Assembly: GCF_003704095.1 (NCBI RefSeq)
Contig: NW_020845340.1
Location: 186,001 to 248,941, forward strand
DNA length: 62,941 nt
Source: Pocillopora damicornis
Taxonomy: Eukaryota
Direction: 5' to 3'
The position numbers were made by a program, and so were the translations under genes. The stretch's first letter is position 1; each line of letters begins with the position of its first letter. Shown piece after piece: positions 23,337 to 56,398 of the stretch. Below the pieces are notes generated by a model. That model was not told where the DNA came from and searched no databases. It saw only the letters and a list, made by a program, of their open reading frames with translations.

Positions 23337-24212
23337 CTACGTAGAAGTATTTAACTTAATTTTCCATTTGCGAACGAGTATTGCTAGTTCTCTCTTGATA
23401 TCCTTTTTTAAACAAGCGTAGACGAAAGGATTCACAACGGAGTTCAAGATAAGGAGAATAGTTATCACCTGTCCAGCTCTTTCGGAAACATTACAGGAAA
23501 AATTGATGCATAAAACTAAACCGTTTACCGCTAAGTAGCATCCCAAGAAGAAAAAGACTACAGCAACGATGAAAGGAGCTGAGTTCTTCTTGTTACGTCT
23601 GAGACACAGTGCGTTGTCTTCTCCGTCAGTAAATAATTGGTTGCAGCGCAGTTGAAGTTGTATTATCACTTCCTGCTGCTTTTGCTTGTGTGCTACCATA
23701 ATGATGCGAATAGCTGCATAAAAGAGTAGCACACAGGACAGTAGAAGAAACCCAGGGACGGTAATAAAAAATAGGATGTTCAATGCTGTGTCGGATTTCG
23801 TCACGTACTGTGTCACCAAAGTTGACGACGAAATTGTGAAAGCAAGCAACCATGCTGTCACAATTACCAGTCCAGGGTGACGCTTTGTAAATGAAGTGTT
23901 GTATTTTAAAGGGTGAACAATGGCGATGTAGCGATCCCAAGTCAAGTTGCAAAGATTCGAGACCGATGAGTGCAGGGAAAACCAAAAAAATGCCGAGACC
24001 ATTTTCAAGTTGCACTTTTCTGCGGTACAAAAATAGGCCGGTGGAAATACTGTGAATCCGAGCATTGCGTCGGCCACTGCAAGAGAAAGGACGAACCAAT
24101 TGGCAGTGGAGTGAAGTCGACGATTTAAGGCTATCAGAACGATCACTGAACTGTTCCCTATAACTGCTGTGACTGAAAGGAACCAGCCGAAAAAATTAAG
24201 GGCATTTTCCAT
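23337..24212 (-). CDS. Class A (rhodopsin-family) orphan GPCR, array paralog 1, intronless CDS (291 aa from MENALNF)
   Basis: Seven hydrophobic segments with GN (TM1), LAVAD (TM2), WDRY (TM3), W (TM4) and NPFVY (TM7). Start chosen by alignment to the paralogs; an in-frame ATG exists slightly upstream. Confidence 0.92.
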   Translation of the reverse strand: MENALNFFGWFLSVTAVIGNSSVIVLIALNRRLHSTANWFVLSLAVADAMLGFTVFPPAYFCTAEKCNLKMVSAFFWFSLHSSVSNLCNLTWDRYIAIVHPLKYNTSFTKRHPGLVIVTAWLLAFTISSSTLVTQYVTKSDTALNILFFITVPGFLLLSCVLLFYAAIRIIMVAHKQKQQEVIIQLQLRCNQLFTDGEDNALCLRRNKKNSAPFIVAVVFFFLGCYLAVNGLVLCINFSCNVSERAGQVITILLILNSVVNPFVYACLKKDIKRELAILVRKWKIKLNTST

Positions 24213-24532
24213 ATCACTGATCTTCAAGAAGTAAAACATGTATGATGGCCTGCTCGGCAATGTCAGACAATACCTTTTGTTCTTAAAAACAATTGTCCGG
24301 AAACATAAGTTATAATATGGGCCTTCTTGGGCAATTTGAAGTTGCTACAAATACGTCTTGCGGTTGTTCGCGTTGACGCAGTTGATGTTTCAACTACCCG
24401 TGTGGCAATGAACTTTACATCCAACGCATCCTGAGTAAATCGCTTACGAGTAAAATATTGAATTGTAGCTTAATCAAATTATTCAAATCGGTAACTCCAG
24501 TCAAAACATATTCGCTGTTAAAGGGGGGTTTT

Positions 24533-24564
24533 GTATAATTCATGACTGCTGTCATGAATTATAC
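24533..24564. repeat. Perfect 14-bp inverted repeat with 4-nt loop
   Basis: GTATAATTCATGAC-TGCT-GTCATGAATTATAC. Confidence 0.8.
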
Positions 24565-24809
24565 GTAATAATTATCATGGTAAAAATGATAGCTTTAGCT
24601 AATCAACCAGTTTCTCAAGTAGAAGAAGCTGTTGTTGAAGACTTCAAATGCGAAACGCTGTTACCGTAGTCGTCAATCATTCGCAAACCTATAGTTATGC
24701 TACACGGTATGTTTAAATACAACAAACACAGGTCGGAGAAACCTTTTTTTTCTATGTACAATTGCATAGGAAGTTTGCCGTTTTGTGAGAGACAATGGAT
24801 TAACTAACT

Positions 24810-26496
24810 NNNNNNNNNNNNNNNNNNNNNNNNNNNNNNNNNNNNNNNNNNNNNNNNNNNNNNNNNNNNNNNNNNNNNNNNNNNNNNNNNNNNNNNNNNN
24901 NNNNNNNNNTATTCATCGGCTTGAGGTAGTGACCGACGTGTTTGCTTAAAAATACTGCCCAGCAGGAAAAACGAGAAATGTTTATCAAAAATGGCAACGA
25001 AAGTTGGGATGTATTTGGCGACTCACGAAAGCGTTACCGTGGCCGGTGGGCAGAGATAGGAAAATACTGACCGGGTAAAGANNNNNNNNNNTTGCAAGAT
25101 TCGTTACCGTGCCCTCTCAAAAAAAAAATAAATCGCGGTATTTTCGCCTTCCTTTTCAGGATTTTTATGGTTGAAATTTTGAAATTAAAATCTCGGAACT
25201 GAAATGGGGTTGCAAACGAAAGCTTCACCCAACTGCAGTTCATTAGACCATACTCAANNNNNNNNNNGCAGGCTGGAAGGTTTCAATGAAAGGTTTGATT
25301 CTTTTTTTTTACCGATTATTTCAGTGTAGTAAGAGTATAGGCGACAANNNNNNNNNNTCAAATGGGAAATTTCTTATTCCTGTAACACAGTTTTCATATA
25401 CTTTTCAACTACTTCTTGAAGACCAAGTGTGAAACCTTGCCCTTACGCATGCGCTTTAGAGCCTCGACGNNNNNNNNNNNNNNNNNNNNNNNNNNNNNNN
25501 NNNNNNNNNNNNNNNNNNNNNNNNNNNNNNNNNNNNNNNCTGAGTAGCATGGGAGGTTATGGGTGCTGCTTAGCCGCGACAGCGAGTGCCTGATGCAAGC
25601 TTCGATAATAGGGTTCGGTCGGGGCACGCTTCATTTAAAGAATTTATTTAAAAAATATAGGTCATAGTCCCTATCATGCTTCAGGCCTCTAAAGGAGCAA
25701 CTGACTGAGTTGAATATTATTTAGCCGTCACGGTGACCTCAAAGGCCTTGACATAAGCTTTAATCAAAGGCACGTTTCGTTAACGCAGTTTTCAAATTAT
25801 CGGTTATACTCATTTTTATCATGTGGCAACAAGTATGCGGCACTAAAGATGTACCTCGCAGGACTCAAAAACTCCCAATAGTGATACTGGTCAACATCAA
25901 TACCAACGGAGACTCTCTTGCGTAACTGAATAATAAATCATGGTTTTATTGTGTATTNNNNNNNNNNCGAAAGTCGGCTGTTATTCACTCGCTCAGAAAT
26001 ACTCAGTTCAACAAAAATTACAAATGCCGCCTTTCAAAAGCCCGGAAGATTTTTCATTCGACAGATTATTTTTATTAGCAAAACAGCCTGATTTCCGANN
26101 NNNNNNNNNNNNNNNNNNNNNNNNNNNNNNNNNNNNNNNNNNNNNNNNNNNNNNNNNNNNNNNNNNNNNNNNNNNNNNNNNNNNNNNNNNNNNNNNNNNN
26201 NNNNNNNNNNNNNNNNNNNNNNNNNNNNNNNNNNNNNNNNNNNNNNNNATGTGACGAAGACGATCAATGCCTACAACAGACTCTTCGCCTAAGACAATTA
26301 TCATCAGTCCATAGGTCACATTTCGCACGTAGAGAGAACGACTAACGATTTGGAACGAACTGATTTGTTTAAAGTTTTTAGTCTGGGGATTGAAAANNNN
26401 NNNNNNNNNNNNNNNNNNNNNNNNNNNNNNNNNNNNNNNNNNNNNNNNNNNNNNNNNNNNNNNNNNNNNNNNNNNNNNNNNNNNNNNNNNNNNNNN
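24810..26496. other. Poorly assembled segment with many N gaps
   Basis: N runs at 24810-24909, 25470-25539, 26099-26248 and 26397-26496, plus several 10-N runs. Confidence 0.95.
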
Positions 26497-27453: not shown

Positions 27454-28323
27454 TTATTTTCGCCTTCGAATGAGCTTTGTAAGTTCCCTCTTTACGTCCT
27501 TTTTCAAACAAGCGTAGACAAAAGGATTGAACGCAGAATTCAAAATCCACAAAGTAGTGAGGACATGTCCTCCTAGTTCAGGAATATTGCACGAAAAATT
27601 AATGCACAAAATCAAACCATTCGCCGTTACACAGCATCCCAAAGAGAGCAAGACTAAAGCAATTATGAAAGGAGCTGAGTTTGGCTTTTTGTGTCTGCGA
27701 AGCGGGGCGGCGTCTGTTGCAGCCGTGACTGATTGGTCGGCTTGGTTGCTGTGCGTGAGTTCGAGATGTAAGGCAGCTTCTCGGCGCGTTTGCTCGCGCG
27801 CCGCAACAAGGATGCGAATGATCGCGTAAAGTAGAAACGTGCAGGACAGTATTTGAAAAACAGGGATGCTGATGAGGAATAGGACTAATAATGCCGTGTG
27901 GGAATCTGTAATGTAATATCCCACAAAATTCGACAGTGATAATGCAAAGGCAATTAACCATGCTGTCATGACAATCAGTCTTGTGTGTCTCATCGTTAAA
28001 GAGGAATGGTATTTCAAAGGCCGAACGATGGCGAAGAATCGATCCCAAGTCAAGATGCAGAGATTAGAGACCGATGAATTAAGGGAGAACCAAAAAAAGG
28101 CTGAGACCAATCTGCGGTTGCATGATTCATCACAAAAGTATGCTGGTGGGAAGATGGCAAATCCAACCAAAAAGTCGGCCACTGCTAGGGAAAGAACGAA
28201 CCAATTGGCAGAGGAGTGAAGTCGGCGAATTACAATAACTAGAACAATCACAAAACCGTTGCCTGCTACTGTTGAGATTGTGAGGAGCCAGCCGATATAG
28301 TCAAACACATTTCCGACTCTCAT
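27454..28323 (-). CDS. Class A orphan GPCR, array paralog 2 (289 aa)
   Basis: 7TM pattern with GNGFV, LHSSANWFVLSLAVAD, WDRF and NPFVY. Confidence 0.93.
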   Translation of the reverse strand: MRVGNVFDYIGWLLTISTVAGNGFVIVLVIVIRRLHSSANWFVLSLAVADFLVGFAIFPPAYFCDESCNRRLVSAFFWFSLNSSVSNLCILTWDRFFAIVRPLKYHSSLTMRHTRLIVMTAWLIAFALSLSNFVGYYITDSHTALLVLFLISIPVFQILSCTFLLYAIIRILVAAREQTRREAALHLELTHSNQADQSVTAATDAAPLRRHKKPNSAPFIIALVLLSLGCCVTANGLILCINFSCNIPELGGHVLTTLWILNSAFNPFVYACLKKDVKRELTKLIRRRK

Positions 28324-29201
28324 GTTAACTGGACGACGATCTGTTTTGACACATTCAGACGTGTTTTGGCCTAATGGAGGCTTTCGACGGAGGATTGTAG
28401 CTGATCCGTTTTGATTGACTTAGAGGACGTGCATATCTTTACATGTCCTTTGTACCTCACTGATGCCTTATTCAGGAACCAAAATAGCAGTGATCTGGGA
28501 TGGAAGAACCTAGATGAAAGACATTGAATTGCATATAAGTTATCGGTTCAAAACATAGCTAGCATTTGTTATGGTAATCATACTATGAGTTGCACGCTCT
28601 CTGATTGGTAGAGAGTTCAATAATGTATTAATTTAATTGCCCCGAGGAATTGATCATAAAACTGACGCACAAAGACGACGAGAAAAAAATATGGCTTTTT
28701 TCGAAAGCAATGTTAGTCACTTTATAAAAAAATACCCACTTTCCTCTTGGCAGGAAAATAATGTGTAGAACCAAAAAGACTCTTAAAAACTGACAATGCA
28801 ACGCTGTACCAAGACTAAAGCAGCTACTTGAGCCGCCTTTTCGAAATGCGTGATACAAACTTATTCTCACCTCAACGATTATTGCATACTTCTAGTTTCA
28901 AACCTTTCTTATACACATTCTACACCAGATTTACTAGATAACAACAAATTTAGACATTTGAGCGCTAAGTATGAAAGTTTGCAGCAACCGTAGAAATGTC
29001 GGAATCATTTTTAACCTTCCTTTGAATTTTTTGATTATTCAGGTCGAACTATTTTTTTGAAATAGCATGTACCTGATATGTGTCACTTACAGTCTACTAC
29101 TCGTTGTGAAAGGGGTTACATAGAAAATTTCTTCAGTCCAGTAATCAAGATGGTTGCTTTGTTGAAATTTTTTTTAAACGCAGAATTGAGGCAGAACAAT
29201 T

Positions 29202-29338
29202 GGATCAATATCAGTATCTGGGCAACTGCCCACCTGCCCCTCCCCTAACCCAACAACAGTCAATTGATAACAAGCTAGGGTTAATGTTGGGTTAGGGGAG
29301 GGGTTGGTGGGCAGTTGCCCAGATACTGATATTGATCC
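29202..29338. mobile_element. Palindromic MITE with long arms and an 8-bp TSD (hAT-like)
   Basis: GGATCAATATCAGTATCTGGGCAACTGCCCACC... and its reverse complement at the other end; flanks GAACAATT / CAACAATT. Confidence 0.8.
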
Positions 29339-29444
29339 CAACAATTTATGTTTATTAAACGAACATTTATGATTGAAGTTGTTAATCTAAACTGGGGTCT
29401 CCCTCAGCTGAATTAACTTATACGAATTAAAAACAGGTGCTTCT

Positions 29445-29593
29445 CGCTCTGACGAAGGGCTAACGCTCGAAACGTCAGCCTTTAAACTCTTTACGGTGGC
29501 CAATTTACGTTTTCAACTCAGTTGATAAAACTAAATGACCCTGTTATACTCTCCTACTGACGCACCACCGCAGTTTCTCAAGAAACTTACCCC
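29445..29593 (+). mobile_element. Hammerhead-carrying repeat copy with intact core (29446-29479)
   Basis: GCT-CTGACGA-A-GGGC-TAAC-GCTC-GAAACGTC-AGC followed by the same tail sequence as the 6.2-6.5 kb element. Confidence 0.7.
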
Positions 29594-29754
29594 GTTTACA
29601 CTTCTCAATATGACTACATCTCTAAGAATGATAGTGGTAGGCAAAGTCGTTGGATATAAGGGGAGCCAATTGAATCGACCCAATAACACAGCTTACTTTT
29701 CACTTCACGAGGGGTAGGGAGTGTACGGTCGGCGAAGACAACGAAAGAGCCGAA

Positions 29755-29900
29755 CCCGGTTGTCCGAAGGTTGGATAACGCTATCCACTGGATAAAACTC
29801 TATACGGTGGATAACGTTATACGTTTTGCTATCACTTATCTACCAGATAATAATTTATCCGCCTGATAGCGTTATCGGACCTTTATACAACTGGGCCCTG
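29755..29900. mobile_element. Imperfect palindromic MITE
   Basis: CCCGGTTGT..AAGGT..GATAACGCTATC at the left and GATAGCGTTATC..ACCTT..ACAACTGGG at the right; internal GGATAA subrepeats. Confidence 0.65.
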
Positions 29901-30611
29901 TAATTAAGATGAACTTCGGCAAATTGCAAGAGATATATACTTTTCTTTTTTCCGGAAATGGCTGTTTCATTTAAAGTAAGAGGTGAAACGAAGCTTTTAA
30001 TTTTTATGCAACTTCATCTCTTATTAATCTGAGAATTTTTTCGCTATATTTCATCGATACAACTTTCTATCATACTCAAATGTGTGGTCTGTAGCACAGT
30101 TGACAGAAAAAGGCCACCACAACACAGCTAGTTTTTCGATGGCATTTCCGTCATGATGTCGGTAGAGGTCACAAGGAGTTCGATTTTTGTTCGAACAGAT
30201 GTGGGTACTAATTCTTTCCTTTTTTAAAATCTGATTCATTCACAGAAATAAAGACTTTTTTATACATCAACGCACCGGTATAAAAGGAAAAAAAAATGTA
30301 AAAAAGGTACTAAAATTACATAAAAAATTATGACTTGGAGACGGTCTCAAAACATGACTCAGAAAACTGCTTTAATTAAATTGGCTTCGAAATTATCGAG
30401 ATGAGTGTATCAAGGAGAAAACTGGAAAATGGAAAAATGATGGAGTATCGCATCTTTATTTAGTTAACGCGGAGAATCCACCTCTCCGATTAGTGTAGGT
30501 CTGCGAAAAGTAGTGGACAAATTGAACGAATATGTTATCATCACAGTTTTGCATTTTGTGAAAAAGCGATTCAATTGCTATTCAAATGTGCTGTTTTGCC
30601 CACCGGCGATA

Positions 30612-30810
30612 TTAACCCTTAAAGTCCCACTATGATACACTGTACGATAGTAGTACGATATCAAGCAGACAATTAATGAGAATAAAGAAAAACATCAATT
30701 AGTGGATTATTTGTTGATCCAATTCCAAATTCTCCAAACTAACATCATATGAATTGTATGAAAGACAGTAAGGAGAATTACTAATGAGATCTTGGGAGTT
30801 AAAGGGTTAA
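30612..30810. mobile_element. piggyBac-type MITE, opposite orientation
   Basis: TTAACCCTTAAAGTCCCA ... TGGGAGTTAAAGGGTTAA. Confidence 0.75.
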
Positions 30811-32270
30811 ATAAATTATATTTCGCTTCGGTTGAATCGTGTTCATTTTCGTCCTTTTTAAGGGAGGGTTGCCTACTCTGAGCCGAAATGAGTACTTAAC
30901 CAACTTGAATGCAAGTGATAGAGACAAACTGCCTCTGAGTAAAGTAGCTTCTCCCGAGCGCATTTTTCCCAAAAATGATGTAAAGAATAAGTAAAAGCGA
31001 CTTGATGCATCCAACTTGACAGACTTGTCTCTTTGGGGAGACATTTGCCGACATAAGCTTTATTTTGTCTCTATGTAATTGTATTGCGTGAATCTTTCGA
31101 GTTCCTCTTTAATTTTTGATCGCGTTTAACATTTTGCATACAGAATCCTATTCCACACGACTCAACTTCGTTCCTTCGTTGTAATGTCACTCATCAAGCC
31201 CTCACATTGCTTCTCAAACAGCTCTATAATGATATAAAATGTGGATTCTACAAGACATCGAAGCACTTTATAAGGATTCATCATTTGAAGCCAAGCCAGT
31301 TATTCAGATTTTCTTGGTTAATATGCAAAATGGTAAATTACATATTTCAAAATTGGTCAAGAAGGCCACGAAAAAAAAAAAAACCTCTCAACTCCTTTCA
31401 TCTTTTCTTTTTTTCGCATGGAAATGTCTGATGTTTAGTCGTCTGGCCGGCTAAGTTCGATCGATGGATTTACCTAAAGGAAACATAAAAGATGACGCCC
31501 CCAAAAGCGGAAAATCATAGTCGGTGGAAGTTACGCTAGGTTTAACATGCGTGTGTACATCACAATAAGCATTTACATACCTTTTGAGGGAAAGAAATAT
31601 ATAAAGTTCCTATAACAAAGAGGTAGGGTATGGGGTCTGTTGAATAGGGAAACACATACAAATTAAAATGCTAAAATGGTAATCATGCGCTGCGCTATAC
31701 AATTATACCCTACATGTTATGGAAAACATGATCATAATGATCAAAATTATTAAAAACACGCTCACCAAGATCACCGCCAGGTTTCGTTAATGTGAAACAA
31801 TTCTAAATTCAAATTTCTTTAAGATAAAAGCAAATGCGACAAACCCGAAGATTTTTACAGAGATGGCTCCTTTCAGCGCTACAGTTTTTACTGCGCTTTG
31901 AGATGAAGATTTAACACTTGCAGAAAGGAAACTATCTGAAAAAGGTTGACCATTAAAATGACGCGCGTTCGCATTTTTAAAAGGTTTCCCTATCTTTATG
32001 GACTTAACAGCGTTACCCGCGTAGAATTGGCTCACTCCTTTCCTATTATCTCTCTTCAAAAAAAGCATAACTAGAGGATTCTCTGCGGAATTATTTAACT
32101 AAAAAGGAAAAGAAAAGGGTCCTACCAGATGCATGGATACCTTTGCAGGTAAACCTTTCCCAGAGAGTTGTCGTGCTTACAGGTACGTGACAACCTTAGT
32201 AAATACACTAACTATATGGCGTGGTGAAGAGAGCTGTTTCTTTACGCCGGCGAACTTAACATCTCAAGTC

Positions 32271-32496
32271 GTTCGGGAGCCGATTGGAAAGCGACTACAA
32301 CTTTTTTCTGTCGTTGATGACGAATGAAAAATAGGATAAGTTTCTAAAGAAATTGTGGAGCTGCATCGGTAGGGGGTGTAATGTTCGGTAGCCGATTGAA
32401 ACGCGACTACAATTTTCTTTCTGTCAGTTGATAACAAATGAATAAAGGGGGTAAGTTTCTAAAGAACCGGTGGAGCTGCATCGGTAGGGGTGTAAT
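32271..32496. repeat. Two-copy tandem duplication (~113-bp unit) including the end of a hammerhead repeat
   Basis: GTTCGG.AGCCGATTG...GGTGTAAT at 32271-32382 and 32383-32496. Confidence 0.8.
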
Positions 32497-32592
32497 AAGG
32501 TGATTTGATCTTATCAACTGAGTGTGTTATGTAAATTAGCCACCGAAAAGAGTTTCAAAGCCAACGTTTCGAGCGTTAGCCCTTCGTCAGAG
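32445..32592 (-). mobile_element. Hammerhead-carrying repeat copy, minus strand
   Basis: The reverse complement reads CTCTGACGAAGGGCTAACGCTCGAAACGTTGGC followed by the family tail. Confidence 0.65.
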
Positions 32593-33271
32593 AAAAAGAT
32601 GCGTAGCGTTAGATGTTTGCTTCACAGTGATATGAGAAATTTTTAAAGAAGTTTCTTCATCTGTAAGATACTCTCACTCGTTGCTAATCATCAGTTGAGT
32701 CACGGAAAGAAAATGGCGAAGGTATCGCATGTTCCATGAAAGTCGTGCGCTTTTTCGAAGTTTGTTTTCAATTAAAGGGGAAGGATCACTTTTCTGATTT
32801 GTAGGCCCGCGATATAACGTGGAAGATTTGAACGAATTTCAGCAGGTTTTTCCTCTTCTGACCGAGAAAAATGTTTCGGAGAGGGCCGCCGAACATGATC
32901 AGATAGGGCGCCTGAAAAGCAAAAGTTTAAGCATTTGCGTATTACGATAGTTTTGGATCGCAATCAATGTGAAACTTACCTCCTTTTTGGCCTAAACTAT
33001 TTTCCCGGCAGGTTAAAAACTTCGATACGACGGGATATGTTTCTTCTGGATACTACACGTGAAGTGTTTCGATCTGAAACGGAAACGAAATAGCTGGTTT
33101 AGAACATCGACCTGCCGGCGACTAACAAGTAAAGTGATGGTCGCACGCACTTAACTTTTCAATCACATTGGCGACCAGTTGGTTGAACTTTTGGACGCAG
33201 ATTAACTAATTAAAGGCTGCCGCTGCCAATAACGTACTACTGCTCGCCGATGATGATAACATTACTGTAGT

Positions 33272-33530
33272 TCAGACACTTGGTATTACTGTTTGCGAGA
33301 CCCAAAGATCCCAATAAACACATTCATCATTTGATACATTTCCGCCTGTTATTTCGTTGGCTGAAAGTAGTGTCTCGTGATATTGGTCTCCAAATGTAAA
33401 ACGCCGTAAAGGTGCGTCTTGGTACAAATAAAGACCCACTCCTGCGTTCGGGTAGTTGCGCTCTTCCGTGAAAAAATTCCCGATTGCTTTCCCAAGCCTC
33501 CGAACATCGAGTATTGAAAATATTTCCAAA
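33272..33530 (-). pseudogene. Possible GAIN/GPS-domain fragment (adhesion GPCR or PKD-like relic)
   Basis: Open frame ...GVGLYLYQD...ETLLSAN...NVSNDECVYWDL resembles the CVFWD half of a GPS motif. No intact second half or 7TM region was found. Confidence 0.3.
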
Positions 33531-36759: not shown

Positions 36760-37662
36760 CTATAATGCCGTTGACGTTCTCATTCTACTTGATGGATTTA
36801 ACGTGTCAAATCCTTCATTAAAGCGTTCTCTGCAGAAAAGCCTCTGTACTTCTCTCTTCATATCCCTCTTTAAAAGCGCATATACCAAAGGATTCCCTGC
36901 GGAGTTCAGAGTGAGTAGGCAAACGATGGTCTGGCCAACTGCAACGGAAGATTGACACGAGGAAAAAGTCACACAAAGAGTAACGGCGCTTACAACTACG
37001 TAGCATCCCAAGAAAAACACAACGATAGCGATGATGAAGAGAGCTGTGTTGCGCAGTCTTCCTCTTCGTAAGGCTTCTGCTTCCGTGGTGGGCCTTCCGT
37101 TTAGCTCCAATTCAGACATCTGGCTTGCCTGTGTCCGAGCCACAATGAGAATACGAACAACGGCATACAAAAGCAGCGCGCAGGAAACTATGTCAAAGAT
37201 GGAGATGTTTAGTATTCGCAAGATCTTCAGGGCAGTGGGGGACTGCGTTGCGTATAATCCCACCAAAAGAGACAAGGCACTCGCAAAGGAAATCAGCCAT
37301 GCGGTCATGATGACCATCCCTGGACGTCTCTCGGTCATGGACGTGTGGTACTTGAATGGATGAACGATTGCGACGTAACGATTCCAAGTCAATGCGCAAA
37401 GATTTGTGGCCGACGAATGAAGGAAAAACCAGAAAAGCGCCACGTATACTTTAAGGTTACACTCTATTGAGCTTAAACAAAAATATGACAAAGGATAAAC
37501 GATGATTCCAACACCAAAGTCGGCCACTGCCAAAGACAGAACAAACCAGTTTGCAGTGGAATGAAGTCGACGAGTTTGGGCCACAATACCAACCACAAAG
37601 CCATTTCCTGCCACTGTAGTGATAGAAAGAACCCATCCAAGAATGTTGAACCACGTCTCCAT
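36760..37662 (-). CDS. Class A orphan GPCR, array paralog 3 (300 aa)
   Basis: 7TM pattern with LHSTANWFVLSLAVAD, WNRY and NPLVY. Confidence 0.93.
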   Translation of the reverse strand: METWFNILGWVLSITTVAGNGFVVGIVAQTRRLHSTANWFVLSLAVADFGVGIIVYPLSYFCLSSIECNLKVYVALFWFFLHSSATNLCALTWNRYVAIVHPFKYHTSMTERRPGMVIMTAWLISFASALSLLVGLYATQSPTALKILRILNISIFDIVSCALLLYAVVRILIVARTQASQMSELELNGRPTTEAEALRRGRLRNTALFIIAIVVFFLGCYVVVSAVTLCVTFSSCQSSVAVGQTIVCLLTLNSAGNPLVYALLKRDMKREVQRLFCRERFNEGFDTLNPSSRMRTSTAL

Positions 37663-41677: not shown

Positions 41678-42550
41678 TTACACACGACTTTCCCCTTGGT
41701 CCTTATTCCAGTTACAAAAAAGCTTTTTCATGTGCGTTTTAATGTCATTCTTACAAAACGCATAAACAACAGGATTCGCAGCGGAATTCAAAACAAGAAG
41801 AACATTAAGAATCTGACCAGCTTTGCCCGGAACTTTGCAAGAAAATGTGAAGCATAAAATTAAGTAATTTACAAGTGCATAACATCCTAGGAAGAACACG
41901 ACTATGGCCACTACGAAGCCAGCTGCGTTGGATCTTTTGCGTTTACGAACTGTTCCTGTAACTTCACTAGATTGGTTAGACTGAAGTTGTAGTTGAATCG
42001 CGTTAGATATTTTGGCTTGGGCGCGAGCTACAACTAAGATACGAACCACAGCATAAAGAAGCAGCATGCAGGATATCATGTCAAAGACAGAGACGCCTGT
42101 TAGACGTAGAATTTTCCATGCAGTTGTGGAGTCTGTTGCGTACATCCCCACCAATAGTGATAGTGAAATCGCAAAGGGAATCAACCAAGCTGCTGTGATG
42201 ACCAATCCAGGGTGTCTTTTGGTTATGAAGTTAGTATACCTAAAAGGGTGAACTATGGCGATATAGCGATCCCAAGTCAATGTACAGAGATTGGTAACTG
42301 ACGAGTGAAGAAAGAACCAAAACATTGGCGTGGTCACGAAGGAGTCGCACTTTATTTTCTCGATACAAAGATATTGTAACGGAAAGACGGCAAATCCGAT
42401 CGTTAAGTCGGCCACTGCCAAGGAAAGGACGAACCAATTTGCCGAGGAATGAAGTTGACGATTCTTGGAGACAAGGCCGACTACAAATCCGTTTCCCACA
42501 ATAGTTACGACGGAAAGTAACCAGCCAAGAATATTGAGCCAAAAAACCAT
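41678..42550 (-). CDS. Class A orphan GPCR, array paralog 4 (290 aa)
   Basis: 7TM pattern with LHSSANWFVLSLAVAD, WDRY and NPVVY. Confidence 0.93.
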   Translation of the reverse strand: MVFWLNILGWLLSVVTIVGNGFVVGLVSKNRQLHSSANWFVLSLAVADLTIGFAVFPLQYLCIEKIKCDSFVTTPMFWFFLHSSVTNLCTLTWDRYIAIVHPFRYTNFITKRHPGLVITAAWLIPFAISLSLLVGMYATDSTTAWKILRLTGVSVFDMISCMLLLYAVVRILVVARAQAKISNAIQLQLQSNQSSEVTGTVRKRKRSNAAGFVVAIVVFFLGCYALVNYLILCFTFSCKVPGKAGQILNVLLVLNSAANPVVYAFCKNDIKTHMKKLFCNWNKDQGESRV

Positions 42551-43127: not shown

Positions 43128-43399
43128 TAAAAAAAAAGCAATTATCTTTACTTTTAATCCTTGGCAATTGTCACAGATCGACTTACACTTCCTAGGGTAC
43201 ACGAAGCCCGTAAACGTTATTTCATCATGCCAGCTGATGGCGTGATTGTCATGTGACAGTTCAATTTATCTCATGCGATATAGGGAACATTGCATGAAAA
43301 GGCGAAAAAGCAAATGCGTTTAAAATACATCGAGCAACGCTTTTTTTTAACAAAATCGTTTACCAATGTACGAAGCAGCTGCTGATAAAAGAGCAAATC
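43128..43399 (+). repeat. ~270-bp segment duplicated in inverted orientation at 60426-60697
   Basis: Near-identical reverse complement, e.g. CACTTCCTAGGGTACACGAAGCCCGTAAACGTTATTTCATCATGCC. Confidence 0.9.
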
Positions 43400-47121: not shown

Positions 47122-47658
47122 GGGTGCGTTTCTTTATTAAAATCCAAAACTAGTTCGCCATCTGTATTTGAATAGAGGCACTCAAGAATTCCAGGGATTC
47201 AAAGAAAGATCGACAGTTGTTTCCTTATCTTAGCTGCTGTCTCACACCACTTAGATGTGGCAAGGTTGTCAAGAACAGGAGAGGCATGCTGAGACGTAAG
47301 GAAATGACTACGGAAGTCATTTGCACTGTACCTTGGAGATTTTTATCAAAGTACAGCTTATTTGAAACTGTCTTTTTTGCCTTCGGCTAATGAGGAAAAC
47401 TGAAAAGAGCTCGTCTTCGTTTGGCATGTTAATTGAAATTTCGCTGAGGCAATCTCCGAGAATGAAATCAATCGGAAAACAATAAACTTAGACGGCGGTG
47501 TTCTCGGCGGCCATCTTTTTCGCTGGGATACCGTTCGTATCGTAGCTTGGGTTTAGAAGATAATAAGCTCTCTTGAGACATCATTCCTTTTCTCAGCGAA
47601 AAATCCTAATGATCCGGATTTTTTGTCTGGTCTCGGATTTAAATAAAGAAACGCACCC
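47122..47658. mobile_element. PIF/Harbinger-type non-autonomous element
   Basis: TIRs GGGTGCGTTTCTTTATT.AAATCC / GGATTT.AATAAAGAAACGCACCC with TAA on both sides. Confidence 0.8.
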
Positions 47659-48177
47659 TAATTAGTTTTTCGTTTAGTTGCCTTACGAATAAACTGGTAT
47701 TAGGACCATTTTACGAACCGGAAATACTGGAAGTATAGGAATAAATATCTTTGGCCCAACAACGGTTCAATTCAATCAGAGTTTTTCAAAGGCTGTTTAC
47801 TTGCGATCTATAAACAACTGGAAGCCCAGATACTACGAATAATACCTATTTAACAAGGCTCTTCTATATCGAATTTACAGCATAAATGATATTACGAAAC
47901 GAAAGTCCATGGCAGAAATATGATCTAAATAATCGATAACTCGCTCAGAGAAAGAAACATTATTTTCTGACCACCGGCAGGTGTCAAAGAGGTTTATCTG
48001 CGCCGGGTGTTTCATCGTCGATTTTAAGTTGCAGCGTTTAAAAAATCCCGGTGGACCGGTGGTTCGAATACTTTCAAATGAAGGTTAGTAGGCGAAGAAT
48101 TATTATAACCCTTGAGTTCATTACGTTGACGACAAAGGGGAACTCTCCAATGTAAACCTCAGCAGTTCTCTGTTGAT

Positions 48178-49050
48178 TTAGTTTCCTTTGTTGAAAACTT
48201 CTCTTATTTTTCTTTTGATGTCTTTCTTTAAAAAAGCGTAGACAAGTGGATTCACCGCGGAGTTAAGAACAAAGAGTAAATTGAGGACCTGTCCAGCTTT
48301 CTTTGAGGATTTCTCAGAGAGGTTGCAAGCCCGGAAACTGAGGCACAAGATCAAACAGTTTGCCACAACGTAACATCCCAGGAAAAACAAGATAAGAGCA
48401 ATAATAAAGCGAGCGGTGTTGTGTTTCCTATGTCTACGAATTGCCACATTCTCTCCTTCAGCTATGGAAGAGTGGCCAGACTGAAGCTGTAGTTCGATGG
48501 CAGTTGACCGGTGTGACTGAGCACGAGCCACCTTTAAGATCCGAGCAACAGCATACAAGAGGAGCATGCAGGATATCAAGTCGAAGGCAGAGACACCCGT
48601 CAATCGTAGAACTTTCCGTGCAGTCTCGGAAGTTGTAATGTACATTCCGACAAAAAGTGCGAGCGAAATTATAAATGGAGTTAACCATGCTATCATGATA
48701 ACTTTATCGGGTCGTCTATTGGTTATAGATGCAATGTATTTGAAAGGGTAAACAATGGCGACATAGCGATCCCGGGTCAATGCGCAAAGATTTGTGACCG
48801 AAGCGTGAATAGCAAACCAAAAAAGTGCCATTTCTATCTCTTGGTTGCACGCCATTAGTTTGTTACAAATATACCCCGATGGAAAGACGATCAGTGCAAC
48901 CACAAAATCTGCCACTGCCAGAGAAAGAACAAACCAGTTGGCAGAGGAATGAAGTCGACGATTTTTTGCGATAAGAACGACTACAAAGCAGTTTCCTGTC
49001 GCTGTGGCGGCTGAAAGAGACCATCCAATGGAACCGAGAAAAGCCTCCAT
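48178..49050 (-). CDS. Class A orphan GPCR, array paralog 5 (290 aa)
   Basis: 7TM pattern with LHSSANWFVLSLAVAD, RDRY and NPLVY. Confidence 0.93.
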   Translation of the reverse strand: MEAFLGSIGWSLSAATATGNCFVVVLIAKNRRLHSSANWFVLSLAVADFVVALIVFPSGYICNKLMACNQEIEMALFWFAIHASVTNLCALTRDRYVAIVYPFKYIASITNRRPDKVIMIAWLTPFIISLALFVGMYITTSETARKVLRLTGVSAFDLISCMLLLYAVARILKVARAQSHRSTAIELQLQSGHSSIAEGENVAIRRHRKHNTARFIIALILFFLGCYVVANCLILCLSFRACNLSEKSSKKAGQVLNLLFVLNSAVNPLVYAFLKKDIKRKIREVFNKGN

Positions 49051-52000
49051 TTGAAACGCTGGAAAAATTGCTCCTACAGCAACCTGAAGACCAAAGTTGA
49101 ACGACGAGTTCTTACCTGTGTTTGAATCTATAGGATTATAATGTTGATAATAACATCTTAAATATGTTTAGTGAGGAATACAACGGCGAAGAACGAGGGA
49201 CTGACTATTGATGTTTTTCTCTTCCTCTAAGAGGTTCATATCAGGAAATGCGTTTGCAAGGCGGATGGCGGCTAAGTACACTAAAACTTCATTGAAATGC
49301 AAATAAGTAGGGTCAATCGAACGTCGTAAGTCGCTTTTGATATTTACTTAGAGCAGTGCTTCGTTAGTGAATCGACTGGAGGTTTTTTATTGTGGCGTAA
49401 CCATTCTAATCGACCATGGAAATTTTTTCAGCTGCATCAAGTAAGGACAAAATAAAACCACGAACGAATGTCGAAAAAAATCAACACAAATACTAATTAC
49501 TTAAGCTGAAATTAATACTAACGAAATGCAGACTGTTTATGTCCTTTGTGGAGGAAATTGTCTATTTAGTACAAAACATTTTCATTTCAAAGCTGCTCAA
49601 GGTTTCTTTGATGGCCCGCTGCGGTCACTCAGTGAAAAATGTTACGGAAAAAATTCGACGCCTTTATTGACCGTGTGATGCCATGACAAAGAGAATATCA
49701 TCCTGTCTTCACCCAATCTTTAATTTAAAGCACAATGTTTTTTTTTTGGATCAAAAACTTACGATATTTGTAAGGAGCACTGCCGACTGTCATCAATTAC
49801 ATCTTTAGGACAATATCCGTCTGGCATTGTTTGTCAAGCTTTCCTTCATTTCGGAAGAATAATTTAAAAAACAATATTGTTTACCCCTTGTTTTACAATA
49901 GAAAGAAAAAGTGTCACCTGCTTGGTTTGCGAAATATCCGTCATAGCCAAAATATAGGTGCGATATTGGTTGCTTAGTGTCTTAACGATGTAACTCCCCG
50001 ACAAAAAATAAAATCTACAAGACTATATATCTTTTTAAATGTTCTTCTTAAAAGAAAAAAAAAAAAAAAGAAGTTCACTGACACCCCAACATGTAGATAT
50101 GATGACATGATTTGTCGTAGAAGTCAACTTTTTCCCCCAGCAAGCGCTGTGATGTTTTCATCATTAATTTAAGATACCTATCCTAGCAAACACTCTTTTG
50201 TTTTTTATGTGCTTATTCCGCGATGGTTTAACGAAAAAAAGGAATCGCTTTCAAAAGCGTTTCGAGCGGACGCAGACGTGTTTCTGCGTCATATGTTACT
50301 AAGGAACTCAAGGCATAAGGTGTTTATAGTAATATGGTGCGCTTGACATAAAACTGTACACAATATCATCACAAGTTATCTTGTTTGTCTTGTTTATCTT
50401 CTGACTGTGCCGACTGAAGCAAAAAAATCAGATGTATTTAAAATACTTAATTCGTTATAATTTTGATGACAGATTTCTGAATAAAATAATTATCAATTAT
50501 TTCTCGTTAGTTTGCTTTTCAGCATTTTCGGCATTGGCAGACATGCGAGCAATTTTGGTAAAATTTGCTGAATGAAATTGCTCAGACACAATTTATTAAA
50601 TATTTATAGGACATCGTTTTATTGCCGGTTACGCTGTTCACCTTTAGTTACTTTGCACACGATTTTCTCCACAACTTTCTTCGTTACCGTCCTGTTTAAA
50701 ACAGAGGTTTAATAAAAAATTTAAAACTGAGAACAAACAACTGAGGCCATGCACTTTTTATCGAGCAGTTGGAAAGTTAGATTGTGATAAACATCACTGA
50801 ATTATTTATTCACCACCAGCTAGCAAACCAAGAAAAAAAAAAACAGAAAAATGTGTCCTCTTAGAGAGAACCTTTCCAGTAATGTATGATACTCGTTGTA
50901 ACGCTTTGCCGTGTTTCATTCAGTGGGTTAGATTAGTTGAAAACGTTACTATAATTTAGAGTCAATGACATAAAAGACATGCATGGTATAAATTACATAT
51001 TTGAGTGCCCGAAGGATCCTTTGATTGCTCTCCTTTAAACGCTAATTTTGCTGAGCTTTACAGTTGATGATCAGTACACGGAAAACTTGAAGACTGAACC
51101 AAAACAAATACAACAAAAACGGAGCCATTGTTAAGACTCAATAGGCCCTCAGGTGACTTGGCTGTGCATCAGTAATGAGTAACCTTTCTGTGTAAGTACT
51201 TGGAGTCAGAAAAGCAATCAGCCTAACATTGTGCGAGGACAATCTTTACTTTTCAGCCATCCATTAAAGATAACGCTTCTCTTAAGTAGGAGTTTGTTCG
51301 CAAAGTTTCCTCTCTAAGCTAAGCAAGAGCATACAAAGTTAATCATTCTTGTTTGGTGAAGTTACAAAGAAACACCCCAATCAAGCTTTACTGGAAAATG
51401 ACAAACACAACTGATGTGGAGGTAAAGGTAAGCTTTCAGCAATGGTTGAGTTCTTAACCGTACTAGCTTAAGGGCTTAGATTTCCCGTAAAATGTTCCTT
51501 ACAAGGACTTTTATTAAGCTTGTTGCCCATTGTGAATGTGAATAAAAACGTGATTGGTGGTTTGATTTCATGCCCGATCCTGATCAAACTTTGTCGATAT
51601 CAAACTGATATGACTCCACAGCTGTGTTGATTTTTTTGACTATGGGCACAAGCATGAACAAAATCGTTCGAGATATACTTTAGCGCCACACATTTTCTCA
51701 TCAAGCAAACGTGTTCAGTGTTGTGTTTTTTTCAAATTGAAGCGTTGATAGTTTTAAATCATTTGGTATCCAGTGGAAACTTACTCACTTTTCAAAGAAT
51801 GCATACGCATCTTTTTTGGAAAAAACATTTTCCAACCATCGTTAAATTTTCATGCAATGACAATTTGTAAACGTTTGCTTACCTGAGCAAACTTATTCAC
51901 TATTCAAAGATTATTGCATCTTTTTTCCATCCCCGTAGTTACGAAATAGATTAAAAAACATTAACATTATGCAAAATCGAACACGCATTTGCCGGTACTT

Positions 52001-53572
52001 CATTTGAGTAACGTGTGCAAATTTCAAGAAAATGTGGTCTTTACGATTTTTGCTTTCAGAGATGTATAGATATAAATTTAAAAAGATGATGATCTTAATA
52101 GTCCTTAGTGAAACTGACAAAAGTAAAACAAAAAAAATAAACAAAAAAGGCATTTCATGAAAATTTGCCATCCATCCCCCTCAACATTTTGGTTCAGTAT
52201 TAAATGTGTTAAATTCGCTGAGTGAGCTGACCTCATATTAAGCAGTTAAAAATCCTACGGAAGTGTAAGATTATCATAGCAATCTTACTGTATTAAAGAT
52301 TAATTTATGTTTAAACAATGAAGCTTTACATTACCTATTAAGTCTGAGACTTATAAATTCATTTTCTTAAATTTGAACTCCACGGCGATAGAAAAGTCAT
52401 TGCTGACCGGCATTTTGACGTCGGTTTGTAAACTTTTTACATAATCTGCACTGATCAATGATTATCTAAGGAAACATATCGCAAAAAAGGGCTTTTGGGG
52501 GTAGATTTTTTACCTATGCAAGAATGAAAATCTGTGGCAATAACTGCCTTTCGTAATATCGGAACTGAATTAACATACTGCTTAATATTTCGTATCATTT
52601 GTCCTTTTATTTCTTCAGTGTTTGGAAGAGCTTTTGGCCTGATACCTGATACCTTTACCAACTGTTGACAAGGATGCATGACTGACTTTAATAACGATGT
52701 CAGTGGTTGCAATTATATTTATTTCACTCGCAAAATCTACCTAGGGACTAAAAAGTATGAATAACTAAATTGAAACAGACAGAAGCTTCTGGCTAACATA
52801 ATTTTGTTTGTGGGGTTTCTCTCCTCCCTTACCTTTTGTGATCATTATTTGTACCATCGGCATACCGCCCATGTTCTTTCATTAACATCAGTCTGCTTTA
52901 CTCAGACTGAAAGAGGAGACGTCGCAGGATAAGGCGTCCAGTGGCGATCATGAATTGAAAAGGTCAACCGAAAAAAAAAAAATCTTGACTGCGTCATATG
53001 GACCAAAATATTTGTGAACATTTCAGTAATTGTTAAATGAAGATTTCATTTCTGCTGTTAAACAAAGATATTCCATTTCGTCTTGTTTCTGCTCAGTTCA
53101 AGATCACATTCGGCGTCAAATGAGCCTTAAAGCAAAAGCAGGCTGCCTCACCTGAGTGTGAGTCATCGATGAAGTCGAATCTATGTGTCATATAAAATAG
53201 GCAGAAAAGCGAAATAGGTCGCAAACTTACCTCAGATCAATTGTGTCAGTTTAGGTACTATTTAAGTCAGCAAGAGTTCTTTTTGAATCGGTTTCCTGTT
53301 TTTAGAGGGAGCCAACAGCTCGTGGTTTTCGCTATAGCCTTTCTTTGTGCGATGAATCCGTCAAACGCTTTTAATTTGATAGCTGATAGTCAACAGCCAA
53401 TCAAAGATAATGCGTGTCTCGGTTTATATTCCATTCAAATCAATCGTGCACCTGCACAACACAAAGGTAAAATTGCAGACTGGGCAAAGTCTGGATGATA
53501 GATAAGGAGACTGCGCTTCATCTTTAGCCAGCTAGCGGTGTTTTATTGTGACATATGAAGAACACAGTCTAA

Positions 53573-53778
53573 TACCCCATTCACACCAGCAAAACATGTT
53601 TTGTTAAACTGGTTTTCATTGAATGAAAATTATAAACAGAGAACTGAAAAACTTGATTTTCCATTGGATTCAAGTACTTGCTAACTTGCATTTCCAATGT
53701 GCTACATTCAAGTCAAAAATATTCGGTTAAATAGTTTCTATGAAGAAAAAAAAAATTAAACTGTGTTTAACAAAACAA

Positions 53779-53809
<31 letters not shown>

Positions 53810-53815
53810 GGGGCA
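53573..53815. mobile_element. PIF/Harbinger-type MITE
   Basis: TAA-TACCCCATTCACACCA ... TGGTGTGAATGGGGCA-TAA. Confidence 0.7.
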
Positions 53816-55510
53816 TAAGATACGTAAACTGTGGTCTCCTTATTAAATGAAAACATTCAAACCACGGGGCCTAATTGAAAGGTTAATTATTATTATCATT
53901 TTATCTGGACTGAAATGCAAGTATTTTGCAATTCGTTCGCTATCTTAAGATTTTATTTTTATACCTATCACGATAGAACTAGGCACAAACCTTTTACACA
54001 TTTGCTTAGGTCAGATCCGTGTCTCTAATTAGTTTACAGATTCAAGTTAAACATAATTGCAAATGTTATCGGTGCGGTCAACAAAAAGGAACCATCTCTT
54101 CCAAAAACAGCTTTGTTTCTCGCCCCCTACTGATTACCCTCATGCCAGTTTTGTTTGCATAAGGCCGGGTCGCATTACAGACGATTTTGCGGAAAATTGT
54201 TTTGTCGAGGGACTAAAATCTGTCAACACACCTGTTTTCTAATGCGACCCCTCATTTTTGATTTTTCAAACATTTCAAAATCGGGAAAAAAACATCAAAG
54301 ATGCCGGCGTGCTTGGGTGAGGCTGACCAATTTTTTTCCAAATCTCGAAAAACCAAAAGAGCCCGCCGCCAAAGCTGTCAACAGTTGAAAAGAATGACTC
54401 CCCATATAGACGGCAAGGTCACGAAAGTGAGAAAGAGCGCGAAATTTCATCACTCATGACTGACTCTTTCATTGCGTGTAGTTCGAAGCTACAGCATGGA
54501 CGGGCGAGATTTCCCCTTTCCTTACTACGGCCATCAAATGCCAAGAAGTGAGCAGTATTCCTTCCTTCAAGAGCTAGGCAACACACCCCCAATTTGGCCT
54601 GTTGTGAGAGCGGAACGAAGGAAACCTGAGAGTCACTGTTACCCTAATCGGCCGCATGGCTAGTGCGTGACTGAACACAATTTCACCGCTCAAATTTCCC
54701 CTGTGTGACTGACGCTTGCATTTTCACTTGTTGAAATGCGACCGTAAGAGCTCAAATTATTTTTTATTTCTGGTCTAATGCAATTTGATTTTCTAGCCGA
54801 TTTTTTCAAGACAAAATAAAAATTGGTCTGTAATACGACCCGGCCCTAACGCAATTAGTAGTATTACTTGTCTTCCTGGACGGGATGTTAAACAAACATC
54901 TCAATAACTCGCATTTAACTCTTGACTAATTTAATAAGTTTCCCGCGCGTTCCTGGCTGGAGAGTGGAAATGCGAGAGTCATGAGTCTTGAGAAGAGAAT
55001 GCAACTTGGAATAAAATGACCCAGCCAAGAACTCGATTTAGCCCTTTCGATCCAAGTTCAGCGCTTTAAGCACCAGAGTATCCCATCTCCCAAAATTAAA
55101 GTCAAATATTAATACTAAATATTAATGGTGCGTCTTTAACAACAACACTGAGAGGACCTTTAGAAAAGGTACATTTGTTTATCTCTACCTTTCCTATGAT
55201 AATTGTAAAATCATTTCAACGTCAATTTTTAATTTCGAGCAGTGATGTGCTGAACATAAAAGACGTATCTTTAGATTTGCCTTGGCTGATTATTGTTTGT
55301 CGTATGCATTGTTTCTAAGCAAACAATTGTGAAACTTTGGCGCGTTGTGTCAGGATTTAAAAACATACTCTACAAAAAGTTCTGTTCTTTCTTCCCTTTT
55401 GACGGGTCAAAGGGAAAATTGTTATTCATTGGCTGTATATTCATACTCCTGTTCTATCCCACTTGACAAATAACATGAGATTCTTAAAAAAAAGTTTCAA
55501 ATTCCTGTTA

Positions 55511-56398
55511 CTACTCATGCTCGCCATGGTTACGCTTGTCACCGAAGGTTTTTTCGCAAATGAGAATTTTTATTTTCTTTTTAATGTCTTTCTTTAAAAG
55601 AGCATAAACCATGGGGTTCACCATAGAGTTTAGAACCAGAAGTAAACTAACAACCTGCCCTGCTCTGTCAGACACATTGCAAGAAGGTATGGTGAGGCAT
55701 ACTATGAGATAATTTACAACGGTATGACATCCCAAGAAAAATACATTAACAGCAATTATAAATCCTGCAGCTGTCTCGTTCTTGTTACTTCTGCGTAAGG
55801 TCAAGCCAAAGTTAGATCTAAGTTGTCGTTCCATAAGAGATTTCTGTCGCGATTGTGCTCGTGCAACAAGTAGGATACGAACAACAGCATAAAGAAGAAA
55901 CATACATAATATTATGTAGAAAGCTGAGACACAGGTCAACCGCATAATTTTGTGAACAGTAGTGGAGCTTGTTGCGAACATGCCCAAAACAAGGGCCAAT
56001 GAAACTGCCAGAGGAATCAACCATGCAACTAAGATAGTCATACGAGGCCGTTTTACGGTCATTGAAGTATTGTATTTGAATGGATGAACGATGGCGAGGT
56101 AGCGATTCCAAGTTAATGCGCAAAGATTTGTGACTGAGGCGTGCATGACAAACCAGTATAAAGCCATCCAAAATATCATGACTATCCTGTTGCAATGTGT
56201 TGTGTTTACACAGTAATAACCCGATGGAAAGAGGACGGCACCGACTGTAAAATCAGCAACTGCTAAGGAGACGACAAACCAGTTGGCCGGCGAATGTAGA
56301 TTGCGAGTTTTGGTGATAAGGAAAACTACTAAACCATTTCCAGTTGCTGTAAAAATAGAGAGAAACCAACCAGTAAAATTCAAAATGTTATCTGTCAT
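55511..56398 (-). CDS. Class A orphan GPCR, array paralog 6 (295 aa from MTDNILNF)
   Basis: 7TM pattern with LHSPANWFVVSLAVAD, WNRY and NPMVY; first true ATG at 56398. Confidence 0.93.
   Translation of the reverse strand: MTDNILNFTGWFLSIFTATGNGLVVFLITKTRNLHSPANWFVVSLAVADFTVGAVLFPSGYYCVNTTHCNRIVMIFWMALYWFVMHASVTNLCALTWNRYLAIVHPFKYNTSMTVKRPRMTILVAWLIPLAVSLALVLGMFATSSTTVHKIMRLTCVSAFYIILCMFLLYAVVRILLVARAQSRQKSLMERQLRSNFGLTLRRSNKNETAAGFIIAVNVFFLGCHTVVNYLIVCLTIPSCNVSDRAGQVVSLLLVLNSMVNPMVYALLKKDIKKKIKILICEKTFGDKRNHGEHE

Follow-up and report, generated by a model that had tools for sequence, protein, structure and literature searches.

Six receptor genes without the CWxP motif

The stretch analyzed here (the window) comprises 62,941 nt of the genome of the coral Pocillopora damicornis (contig NW_020845340.1, positions 186,001 to 248,941); its end coincides with the scaffold end, and all coordinates below are positions in it. 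Between 23337 and 56398 the window holds an array of six genes, G1 to G6, which encode G protein-coupled receptors (GPCRs) of the rhodopsin-like class A devoid of both the tryptophan and the proline of the CWxP motif in transmembrane helix 6 (TM6). As the original prediction had described, the six are open reading frames (ORFs) on the same strand and of similar length, running from ATG to stop on the minus strand and coding for 289-300 aa (Table 1). Together with a seventh receptor, G7, they match Pfam 7tm_1, the E values of G1-G6 ranging from 9e-25 to 3e-32, with six of six above the curated cut-off. Pairwise identity among the six is 44-58%, and that of each with G7 is 21-25%. Their N-termini are short because an in-frame stop lies 0-39 codons upstream of each ATG, N1.50 being residue 20-22 in five genes and residue 29 in G1 if counted from its first Met. 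Likewise, the distance between N1.50 and the nearest Met is 20-22 residues in 112 of the 116 homologs that could be scored.

Longer N-termini were considered and rejected, given that the 329-aa database forms of G4 (P0001-P0003) run into the 5' untranslated region (UTR) of the window and probably arise from a non-ATG start called by a gene finder. No upstream motif common to the array genes was found, and the Rfam search gave 0 matches. The nearest named homolog is from Stylophora (81%), followed by Oculina and Orbicella proteins at 59-66%. In NCBI, close relatives go by the names adenosine A2a/A2b-like, TAAR8-like, octopamine beta-like, histamine H2-like, and alpha-2C-like, which bears out the expectation that such genes would be misannotated as adrenergic- or histamine-like.

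Motif state of the six receptors

Residues are given with Ballesteros-Weinstein labels, and their usual roles are those generally known for class A receptors except where a paper is cited. The TM6 register comes from gap-free alignments with CWxP-bearing paralogs of the coral and with the beta1-adrenergic receptor, that of 5.50 from paralogs carrying F-E-x-x-P, and 3.32 was counted back from R3.50. With these registers, W6.48, P6.50, P5.50, and Y5.58, which are typical and not obligatory class A features, are each absent from all six proteins. The TM6 strings read originally and the loss of P5.50 (Ser in five genes, Leu in G6) were both recovered, with 5.58 occupied by V, A, or I. Moreover, no Pro occurs from 6.36 to 6.60 in any of the six, so that the Pro at 6.50 named beforehand as evidence to the contrary was not found; a Pro at 6.35 is present in G1 and G2. 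At 3.32 a Phe had been claimed for every gene, which holds for five, G6 having Tyr. The Asp3.32 that is the hallmark of aminergic receptors is absent from all six, as are N6.55 and H7.43, the adenosine receptor residues as in A2A (6.55 is V, I, or T; 7.43 is I, T, or V).

Several other class A motifs are kept, in agreement with the original prediction for LAxAD, [DN]R[YF], and NPxxY. N1.50, D2.50, R3.50, W4.50, and P7.50/Y7.53 are present in six of six, as are LAVAD and NPxxY, and the DRY motif reads DRY in three genes, NRY in two, and DRF in one. Also retained throughout are C6.47 and the sodium pocket (D2.50, S3.39, N7.45, and N7.49), with F6.44 in five of the six. The disulfide between C3.25 and extracellular loop 2 (ECL2) is typical of class A GPCRs; none of the six has an ECL2 cysteine, the extra Cys of G6 being 5.42 in TM5. 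There is a Cys pair at the TM2 end and in ECL1, whose ECL1 member lies 26-32 residues before R3.50 and never 25, and a second pair at the TM6 end and in ECL3. Across the 75-member coral family described below, the first pair is complete in 60, wholly absent in 14, and reduced to a single Cys in one, and this joint presence or absence suggests that the two residues form a disulfide.

The 120 closest database homologs, a set skewed toward G4-like matches, repeat this state: P6.50, W6.48, P5.50, and Y5.58 occur in none of them, both ECL1-pair cysteines are present in 120 of 120, and 3.32 is F, Y, or L in all. Within this subfamily set, W3.33 is found in 120, H3.37 in 119, Y6.48 in 115, and D5.47 and R5.39 in 105 each. 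The five published odorant receptor (OR) motifs and KAxxTCxxH (PMC3017388 and 10.1101/2022.12.20.520951) matched none of the six genes, none of the 75 family members, and none of the 120 homologs. In the controls, motifs 2-5 and KAxxTCxxH matched 7-11 of 11 ORs and motif 1 matched 0 of 11.

Table 1. Receptor genes, remnants, and other features of the window.
Feature	Position	Strand	Description
G1	23337-24239	minus	300 aa, second Met at codon 10; TM6 GCYLA, S5.50, A5.58, F3.32; outside the RNA-mapped stretches
G2	27454-28323	minus	289 aa; TM6 GCCVT, S5.50, I5.58, S6.44; sister of G1
G2 5' UTR intron	28510-32979	minus	4,470 nt, GT...AG
G2 non-coding first exon	32980-33344	minus	RNA contig and splice dinucleotides
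Pseudogene remnant	32038-32241	minus	within the G2 intron; frameshifted, covering TM6 to helix 8; nhmmer E 2.3e-10
G3	36760-37662	minus	300 aa; TM6 GCYVV, NRY, S5.50, V5.58; ortholog Stylophora XP_022789159
G4	41678-42550	minus	290 aa; TM6 GCYAL, S5.50, V5.58; ortholog Stylophora XP_022789172 (81%)
G5	48178-49050	minus	290 aa; TM6 GCYVV, S5.50, V5.58
Possible second remnant	50622-50842	minus	TM6 to C-terminus, more decayed; nhmmer E 0.0017, high composition bias; tentative
G6	55511-56398	minus	295 aa; TM6 GCHTV, NRY, Y3.32, L5.50, V5.58
G7	58455-59438	minus	canonical class A GPCR (VWMP, P5.50, Y5.58); outside the family clade; internal control
Promethin-family ORF	5630-6124	minus	single exon, 164 aa
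Death-fold adaptor gene	12375-15557	minus	multi-exon, in head-to-head orientation with PIG-C; exons encode a death domain and two CARD domains
PIG-C (GPI2)	~15900-21000	plus	exons, two confirmed by Pfam
Short dispersed repeats	29202-29338, 29444-29598, 30643-30810, 53569-53820, 58246-58459		one palindrome (miniature inverted-repeat transposable element-like); heavy RNA contig cover
Inverted pair	43129-43399 and 60426-60696		96% identical

Transcripts, dead copies, and selection

Transcription was followed in assembled bulk RNA contigs, in which gaps in cover carry no weight and expression levels are not rankable; the mapping took in stretches with G2-G6, and two of the five runs are RNA by guess. 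Contigs lie on five of the six genes (G2-G6), covering G3, G5, and G6 only in part. On G4 they run unbroken over the ATG in four of four runs, these runs having been chosen with G4, and G2 is also covered in four of four. G3 has short contigs in three of four runs, G5 one unspliced contig of 2,293 nt (47776-50039, run X1) and short pieces in runs X2 and X3, and G6 a single 360-nt contig (run X13).

The genes had been described as intronless, which is true of the coding sequences, whereas the whole gene G2 has a long 5' UTR intron. In run X1, taken as RNA by guess, one contig bridges 28507 and 32978, GT and AG being found after a 2-nt shift, and a contig of the polyA run X2 ends at the same junction with 135 letters left over. 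The resulting G2 5' UTR (32980-33344 plus 28324-28509, 551 nt) contains ten upstream ATGs, which could limit translation of G2. One contig of run X2 has a 1-nt insertion at 27505, near the G2 C-terminus, either an allele or an assembly error. Inside the intron lies a frameshifted receptor remnant, against whose E value the best of six reversed or shuffled control sequences reached 0.075; a second remnant, between G5 and G6, is tentative. The G2 first exon appears to occupy the place of the dead copy's former 5' UTR, and G2 may have taken this exon over.

In all 15 pairs among G1-G6, nonsynonymous divergence (dN) is 0.28-0.46 and synonymous divergence (dS) 0.9-5.6, and the six genes are under purifying selection. 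G3 and G4 have one-to-one orthologs in Stylophora, which, together with dS values of at least 0.9, makes the six genes old paralogs; the array is old and of slow turnover. Moreover, 12 Oculina relatives share a single record length, and some species-specific groups are also present. That the six are decaying duplicates, or their motif state an artefact of alignment, is extremely improbable. One or two dead copies do lie in the array, but the frames are intact, dN is well below dS, RNA contigs cover the genes, and the same motif state returns in 120 of 120 homologs and in nearly all scorable representatives of a wider search (see below).

A wide family in the coral genome

In the search of the coral's own genome, 135 out of 1,480 candidates were scored, with 136 matches as the result, most of them covered by the 80 stretches taken. 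These stretches yielded 116 ORFs no shorter than 230 aa, the seven of the window among them, and after dropping one truncated and two wrong-frame sequences 113 were aligned. Of these, 75 form one clade (Shimodaira-Hasegawa-like approximate likelihood ratio test support 98) spread over 28 scaffolds, with 20 members on one scaffold; this number is a lower bound, and a few near-identical pairs may be alleles. P6.50 occurs in one of the 75, against 37 of the 38 aligned coral receptors outside the family, a difference not due to chance. Within the clade, W6.48 is found in 9, Y5.58 in 8, P5.50 in 47, and Y6.48 in 55. On the other hand, R3.50, Y7.53, D2.50, and S3.39 are each retained in 74, N7.49 in 72, N7.45 and F6.44 in 71, and C6.47 in 65. 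Both the expanded orphan family and the non-standard switch set that had been proposed from the array are supported.

The tree suggests a stepwise loss, P6.50 going first, then W6.48 and Y5.58, and then P5.50, an order read from a tree rooted on the other coral receptors. Twelve early-branching members keep W6.48 in nine cases, P5.50 in nine, and Y5.58 in seven, whereas in the derived clade of the other 63 (support 100 in the main tree) W6.48 is found in none and Y5.58 in one. In the window subfamily, made up of the six genes and L001, P5.50 is gone as well; other branches lost it separately. The idea of a second array at L001 was rejected, no other GPCR being present in 40 kb of flank.

The family varies more where a ligand would bind than elsewhere in the helices. 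Residues at 3.32 include R, Y, A, F, S, and W, and the entropy of pocket positions is 2.74, compared with 2.07 at other TM positions. Positions 3.37 and 5.47 appear to covary (Y-E in 33 of 75, H-D in 4 of 75), which is suggestive and uncorrected for kinship.

Some observations concern the coral receptors at large. On scaffold C2447 of the same genome set (G000), 19 family members are clustered at ~906-1114 kb, with one more far away on the scaffold; the pieces are L005-L007, L014, L017, L024, L029, L030, L042, L046, and L066. As this cluster holds most early-branching members and the only member with CWIP, L024, it is possibly the ancestral one. Outside the family, three close tandem receptors at L055 (G000 C1548:9600-19500) carry CYLP and T5.50 with P6.50 kept, an independent loss of W6.48. 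Also, L078 (G000 C2576:96000-97900) is the only receptor of the 113 aligned with Asp3.32 and a candidate true amine receptor.

Distribution in other anthozoans

The family profile collects 2,274 representatives at E <=1e-30. Of the best 150 of these, 141 were scorable; 137 have the same motif state, and four have P6.50, two of them being fused non-family receptors. Twenty divergent representatives were looked up, three of which are informatively named (Dendronephthya, Actinia, and Nematostella), and another search brought in Exaiptasia as well as two additional Nematostella proteins. These anemone and octocoral relatives all fall within the family clade with support of 99-100, and the family spans hexacorals and an octocoral. 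The original proposal of a lineage-specific family, in its narrow sense, is not sustained, given these anemone and octocoral relatives and the age of the paralogs. Word-limited searches turned up no named medusozoan or bilaterian member, which does not show absence. Species-specific expansions of the family occur in other corals. In addition, the European Nucleotide Archive (ENA) records P0313, P0317, P0319, and P0445-P0483, from other assemblies, constitute a separate expanded subfamily, several members of which have G3.32 and V or A at 5.50.

Kinship with known receptor classes

The best solved relatives of the family profile are the alpha2- and beta1-adrenergic receptors, TAAR9, 5-HT6, A2A, and H2, at 150-163 bits, and in the database searches the scores are 61-70 bits for ORs but reach 154 for amine and TAAR receptors. 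In free trees the family nests among coral receptors with CWxP (support 94-96) and stands apart from muscarinic, 5-HT1A-like, and alpha2-like rows, the amine sampling being sparse; the trees are without MECA receptors, none of which was returned by sequence searches. A clade of the family with TAARs is rejected by the approximately unbiased (AU) test (p 0.015, two fish TAAR13c-like rows), and p is 0.049 for a clade with adenosine receptors, represented by a single long-branched fish A1 row, a borderline value. ORs are not grouped with the family in free trees, and yet the constrained grouping is not rejected, with p 0.54, or 0.30 with a mixture model, for three OR rows on a very long branch; in the p 0.54 run the OR-constrained tree is 3 log units better than the free tree.

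This bears on whether the receptors could be true cnidarian orthologs of chordate ORs, comparable to the OR-like genes that Churcher and Taylor listed in Nematostella, which we consider quite unlikely. The two AU values, the Y6.48 of 55 of the 75 members, the absence of P6.50, the single-exon coding sequences in arrays, and weak Pfam 7tm_4 matches in five of the six genes would fit such an origin. However, five of the six OR patterns that recover 7-11 of 11 control ORs recover none of the 75, the bit scores and free trees point to amine/TAAR receptors and to coral CWxP receptors, respectively, and early-branching members keep W6.48, P5.50, and Y5.58. Moreover, Y5.58 is present in 8 of 75 as opposed to 93% of ORs (10.1101/2022.12.20.520951). 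Because none of the 75 carries the OR motifs, the likeness to ORs is most likely convergent.

Predicted structure

AlphaFold models of G4 (predicted local distance difference test 77, predicted template modeling score 0.73) and of the paralog L002 (89 and 0.87) are seven-helix class A bundles with a fold Z of ~27 and with 3-4 non-helical residues between TM4 and TM5. For G4 the top matches are CB2 (Z 27.1, root mean square deviation 3.0, 273 aligned) and CB1 (27.0), which lead by 1.3 Z, with GPR3 at 25.4; for L002 the cannabinoid receptors tie with CCK1R, SSTR2, and TRHR. The fold searches single out no one family. No OR appears among the matches listed, which excludes nothing. In the ESM Atlas, cnidarian 7tm_1 clusters head the ranking, followed by a large cluster from chordates and by GPR119 and adenosine A2c clusters (0.95-0.96), which are leads only.

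Proposed function and mechanism

Our preferred reading, held tentatively and with somewhat less than even confidence, is that G1-G6 encode intact class A GPCRs that form part of an orphan family found across anthozoans, that their ligands are likely small and not peptides, probably external cues, and that they would signal through G proteins without the TM6 proline hinge. Its parts differ in strength. A role as signaling receptors seems highly probable, and a small-molecule ligand is likely, since the near absence of an N-terminus and the minimal ECL2 leave little surface for a peptide and favor a small ligand inside the bundle. Given such a ligand, an external cue is slightly favored over an internal messenger. 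For Gs/cAMP as the output the chances are about balanced, based on the long TM5 whose IxxxARxQ end aligns with beta-adrenergic (beta1) receptors, a weak hint.

In the proposed mechanism, the ligand would sit in the helix bundle against the pocket residues conserved in the subfamily, F3.32, W3.33, H3.37, R5.39, D5.47, N6.52, and Q7.36, and candidate sources of the cue are seawater, prey, microbes, and symbionts. The two short Cys pairs (TM2 end-ECL1 and TM6 end-ECL3) would replace the TM3-ECL2 disulfide. Binding would act via Y6.48 and F6.44 on the kept C6.47-N7.45-N7.49-D2.50 network, and a straighter TM6 would rotate about G6.46-C6.47-Y6.48, a pivot like the FYGx of ORs and independently reached.

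The external origin of the ligands is the least certain step. The 75 copies, the arrays, the pseudogene remnant, the species-specific expansions, and the family pocket entropy make external sensing plausible. The genes could instead be receptors for internal messengers (purines, lipids, or amino-acid derivatives) in cell-type-specific paracrine signaling, with no outside sensing, which we regard as possible but distinctly less probable than not. Descent from an amine/adenosine-like group, the conserved pocket of the subfamily, the long-kept orthologs, the G4 model topping at CB2 and CB1 with GPR3 behind, and the large cnidarian-specific clade described near monoamine receptors (PMC10244343) would all agree with this. 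However, at least 75 copies with strongly varied pockets are many for a few internal ligands, pseudogene remnants and species-specific gains occur, and the cannabinoid match is tied with other receptors in the L002 model.

A further alternative, which we deem unlikely, is that the receptors are ligand-independent or weakly coupling, either constitutive tone-setters or atypical (decoy, arrestin-biased, or dimer-partner) receptors for which the transmission switch is not needed. All of W6.48, P6.50, P5.50, and Y5.58 are lost in the window subfamily, and the activity of OR51E2 is abolished by loss of Y5.58 (10.1101/2022.12.20.520951). Nonetheless, there is next to no variation in DRY, NPxxY, helix 8, or the sodium pocket, and a pocket strictly conserved in the subfamily and diversified in the family implies selection by ligands.

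Several observations weigh against the preferred reading of external small-molecule receptors that have lost the switch stepwise. The subfamily pocket entropy is 0.82, compared with 0.86 at other TM positions (in the G4-biased set), and paralogs kept one-to-one between genera would fit a fixed internal ligand equally well. Clustering is weak evidence for chemosensing, since GPCRs are commonly amplified in tandem in corals (34 of 192 amplified orthogroups; 10.1101/2022.05.17.492263), and the absence here of the Y5.58 needed in OR51E2 could mean weak coupling (10.1101/2022.12.20.520951). Regarding the order of losses, the early-branching L024 (212-1210) keeps CWIP, the sole P6.50 in 75, so that P6.50 was lost more than once or its loss was reversed, and the derived 63-member clade has a support of 0.16 in a FastTree run still holding two wrong-frame rows.

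In a bolder form, which is possible though doubtful, the family would be the anthozoan counterpart of ORs, that is, chemoreceptors arisen independently from an amine/adenosine-like ancestor predating the hexacoral-octocoral split, with stepwise switch loss and a Tyr6.48 pivot. If true, it would supply the receptors with which corals and anemones sense symbiont, feeding, or settlement cues, together with living intermediates for a GPCR working without P6.50, W6.48, P5.50, Y5.58, and the ECL2 disulfide.

Coral settlement responds to sensory inputs described as unknown (PMC12225738), and the family is a defined candidate set for coral chemical senses. Moreover, a conserved P6.50-less family with W6.48/Y5.58/P5.50 intermediates lends itself naturally to testing which switches are needed for class A activation, and its Nematostella members open it to screening and editing in that animal. 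Also, the database names (adenosine, TAAR, octopamine, histamine, dopamine, and adrenergic) can mislead coral transcriptome studies.

Neighboring features

G7 has a Cys neither at 3.25 nor in ECL2, and a dispersed repeat adjoins its stop codon. The other genes and repeats of the window are given in Table 1.

Comparison with known receptor systems

MECA-type receptors (CB1, CB2, S1P1, GPR3/6, and MC4R), which are top or near-top structural matches of the G4 model, also do without P5.50 and the TM3-ECL2 disulfide, but they have CWxP and Y5.58. None of them is in the best 60 of 921 sequence matches to the family profile.

P6.50 is reported in 98% of non-olfactory class A GPCRs in a source that also describes the C6.47-N7.45-N7.49-D2.50 switch (PMC3610275), and for OR51E2 a rotation of TM6 about a proline-free FYGx pivot with Tyr6.48 has been proposed (10.1101/2022.12.20.520951). 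Vertebrate ORs resemble the coral family in the lack of CWxP, Tyr6.48, poor conservation of PIF, single-exon coding sequences, tandem arrays, and birth and death. Missing from the coral family are the OR features KAxxTCxxH, MAxDRYxAICxPLxY, LxxPMY, H6.40, and Y5.58; unlike ORs, it keeps C6.47-N7.45 and the sodium pocket, and its ECL2 is very short and without cysteine.

Among cnidarians, the monoamine/adenosine-related receptors of Goulty et al. 2023 (PMC10244343) and Thiel et al. 2024 (PMC11087051), the latter a cnidarian subcluster of the small-transmitter cluster, are likewise orphan class A receptors with amine, TAAR, and adenosine relatives. No motif description of these clades is given in the text compared; the coral family has lost the CWxP that is kept in its coral sister groups. 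The amplified rhodopsin-like orthogroups of Noel et al. (10.1101/2022.05.17.492263) are also tandem, coral-amplified, and of function not known; they are a bulk category for which an immune or symbiosis role is suggested, with no family or motif analysis in the text compared. Expanded orphan families of lophotrochozoans are described as keeping little beyond DRY and NPxxY (PMC11886862), so motif erosion in such families has a precedent. The literature searched, which did not cover the supplements of PMC8162421, PMC12225738, PMC11087051, PMC10244343, and PMC3017388, describes no cnidarian family without CWxP, and a full-text search for six family accessions returned no paper. Tandem amplification of coral rhodopsin-like GPCRs and a cnidarian clade near monoamine receptors are already published. 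The six genes of the array are best regarded as members of this orphan family of anthozoans and not as a local expansion or OR orthologs.

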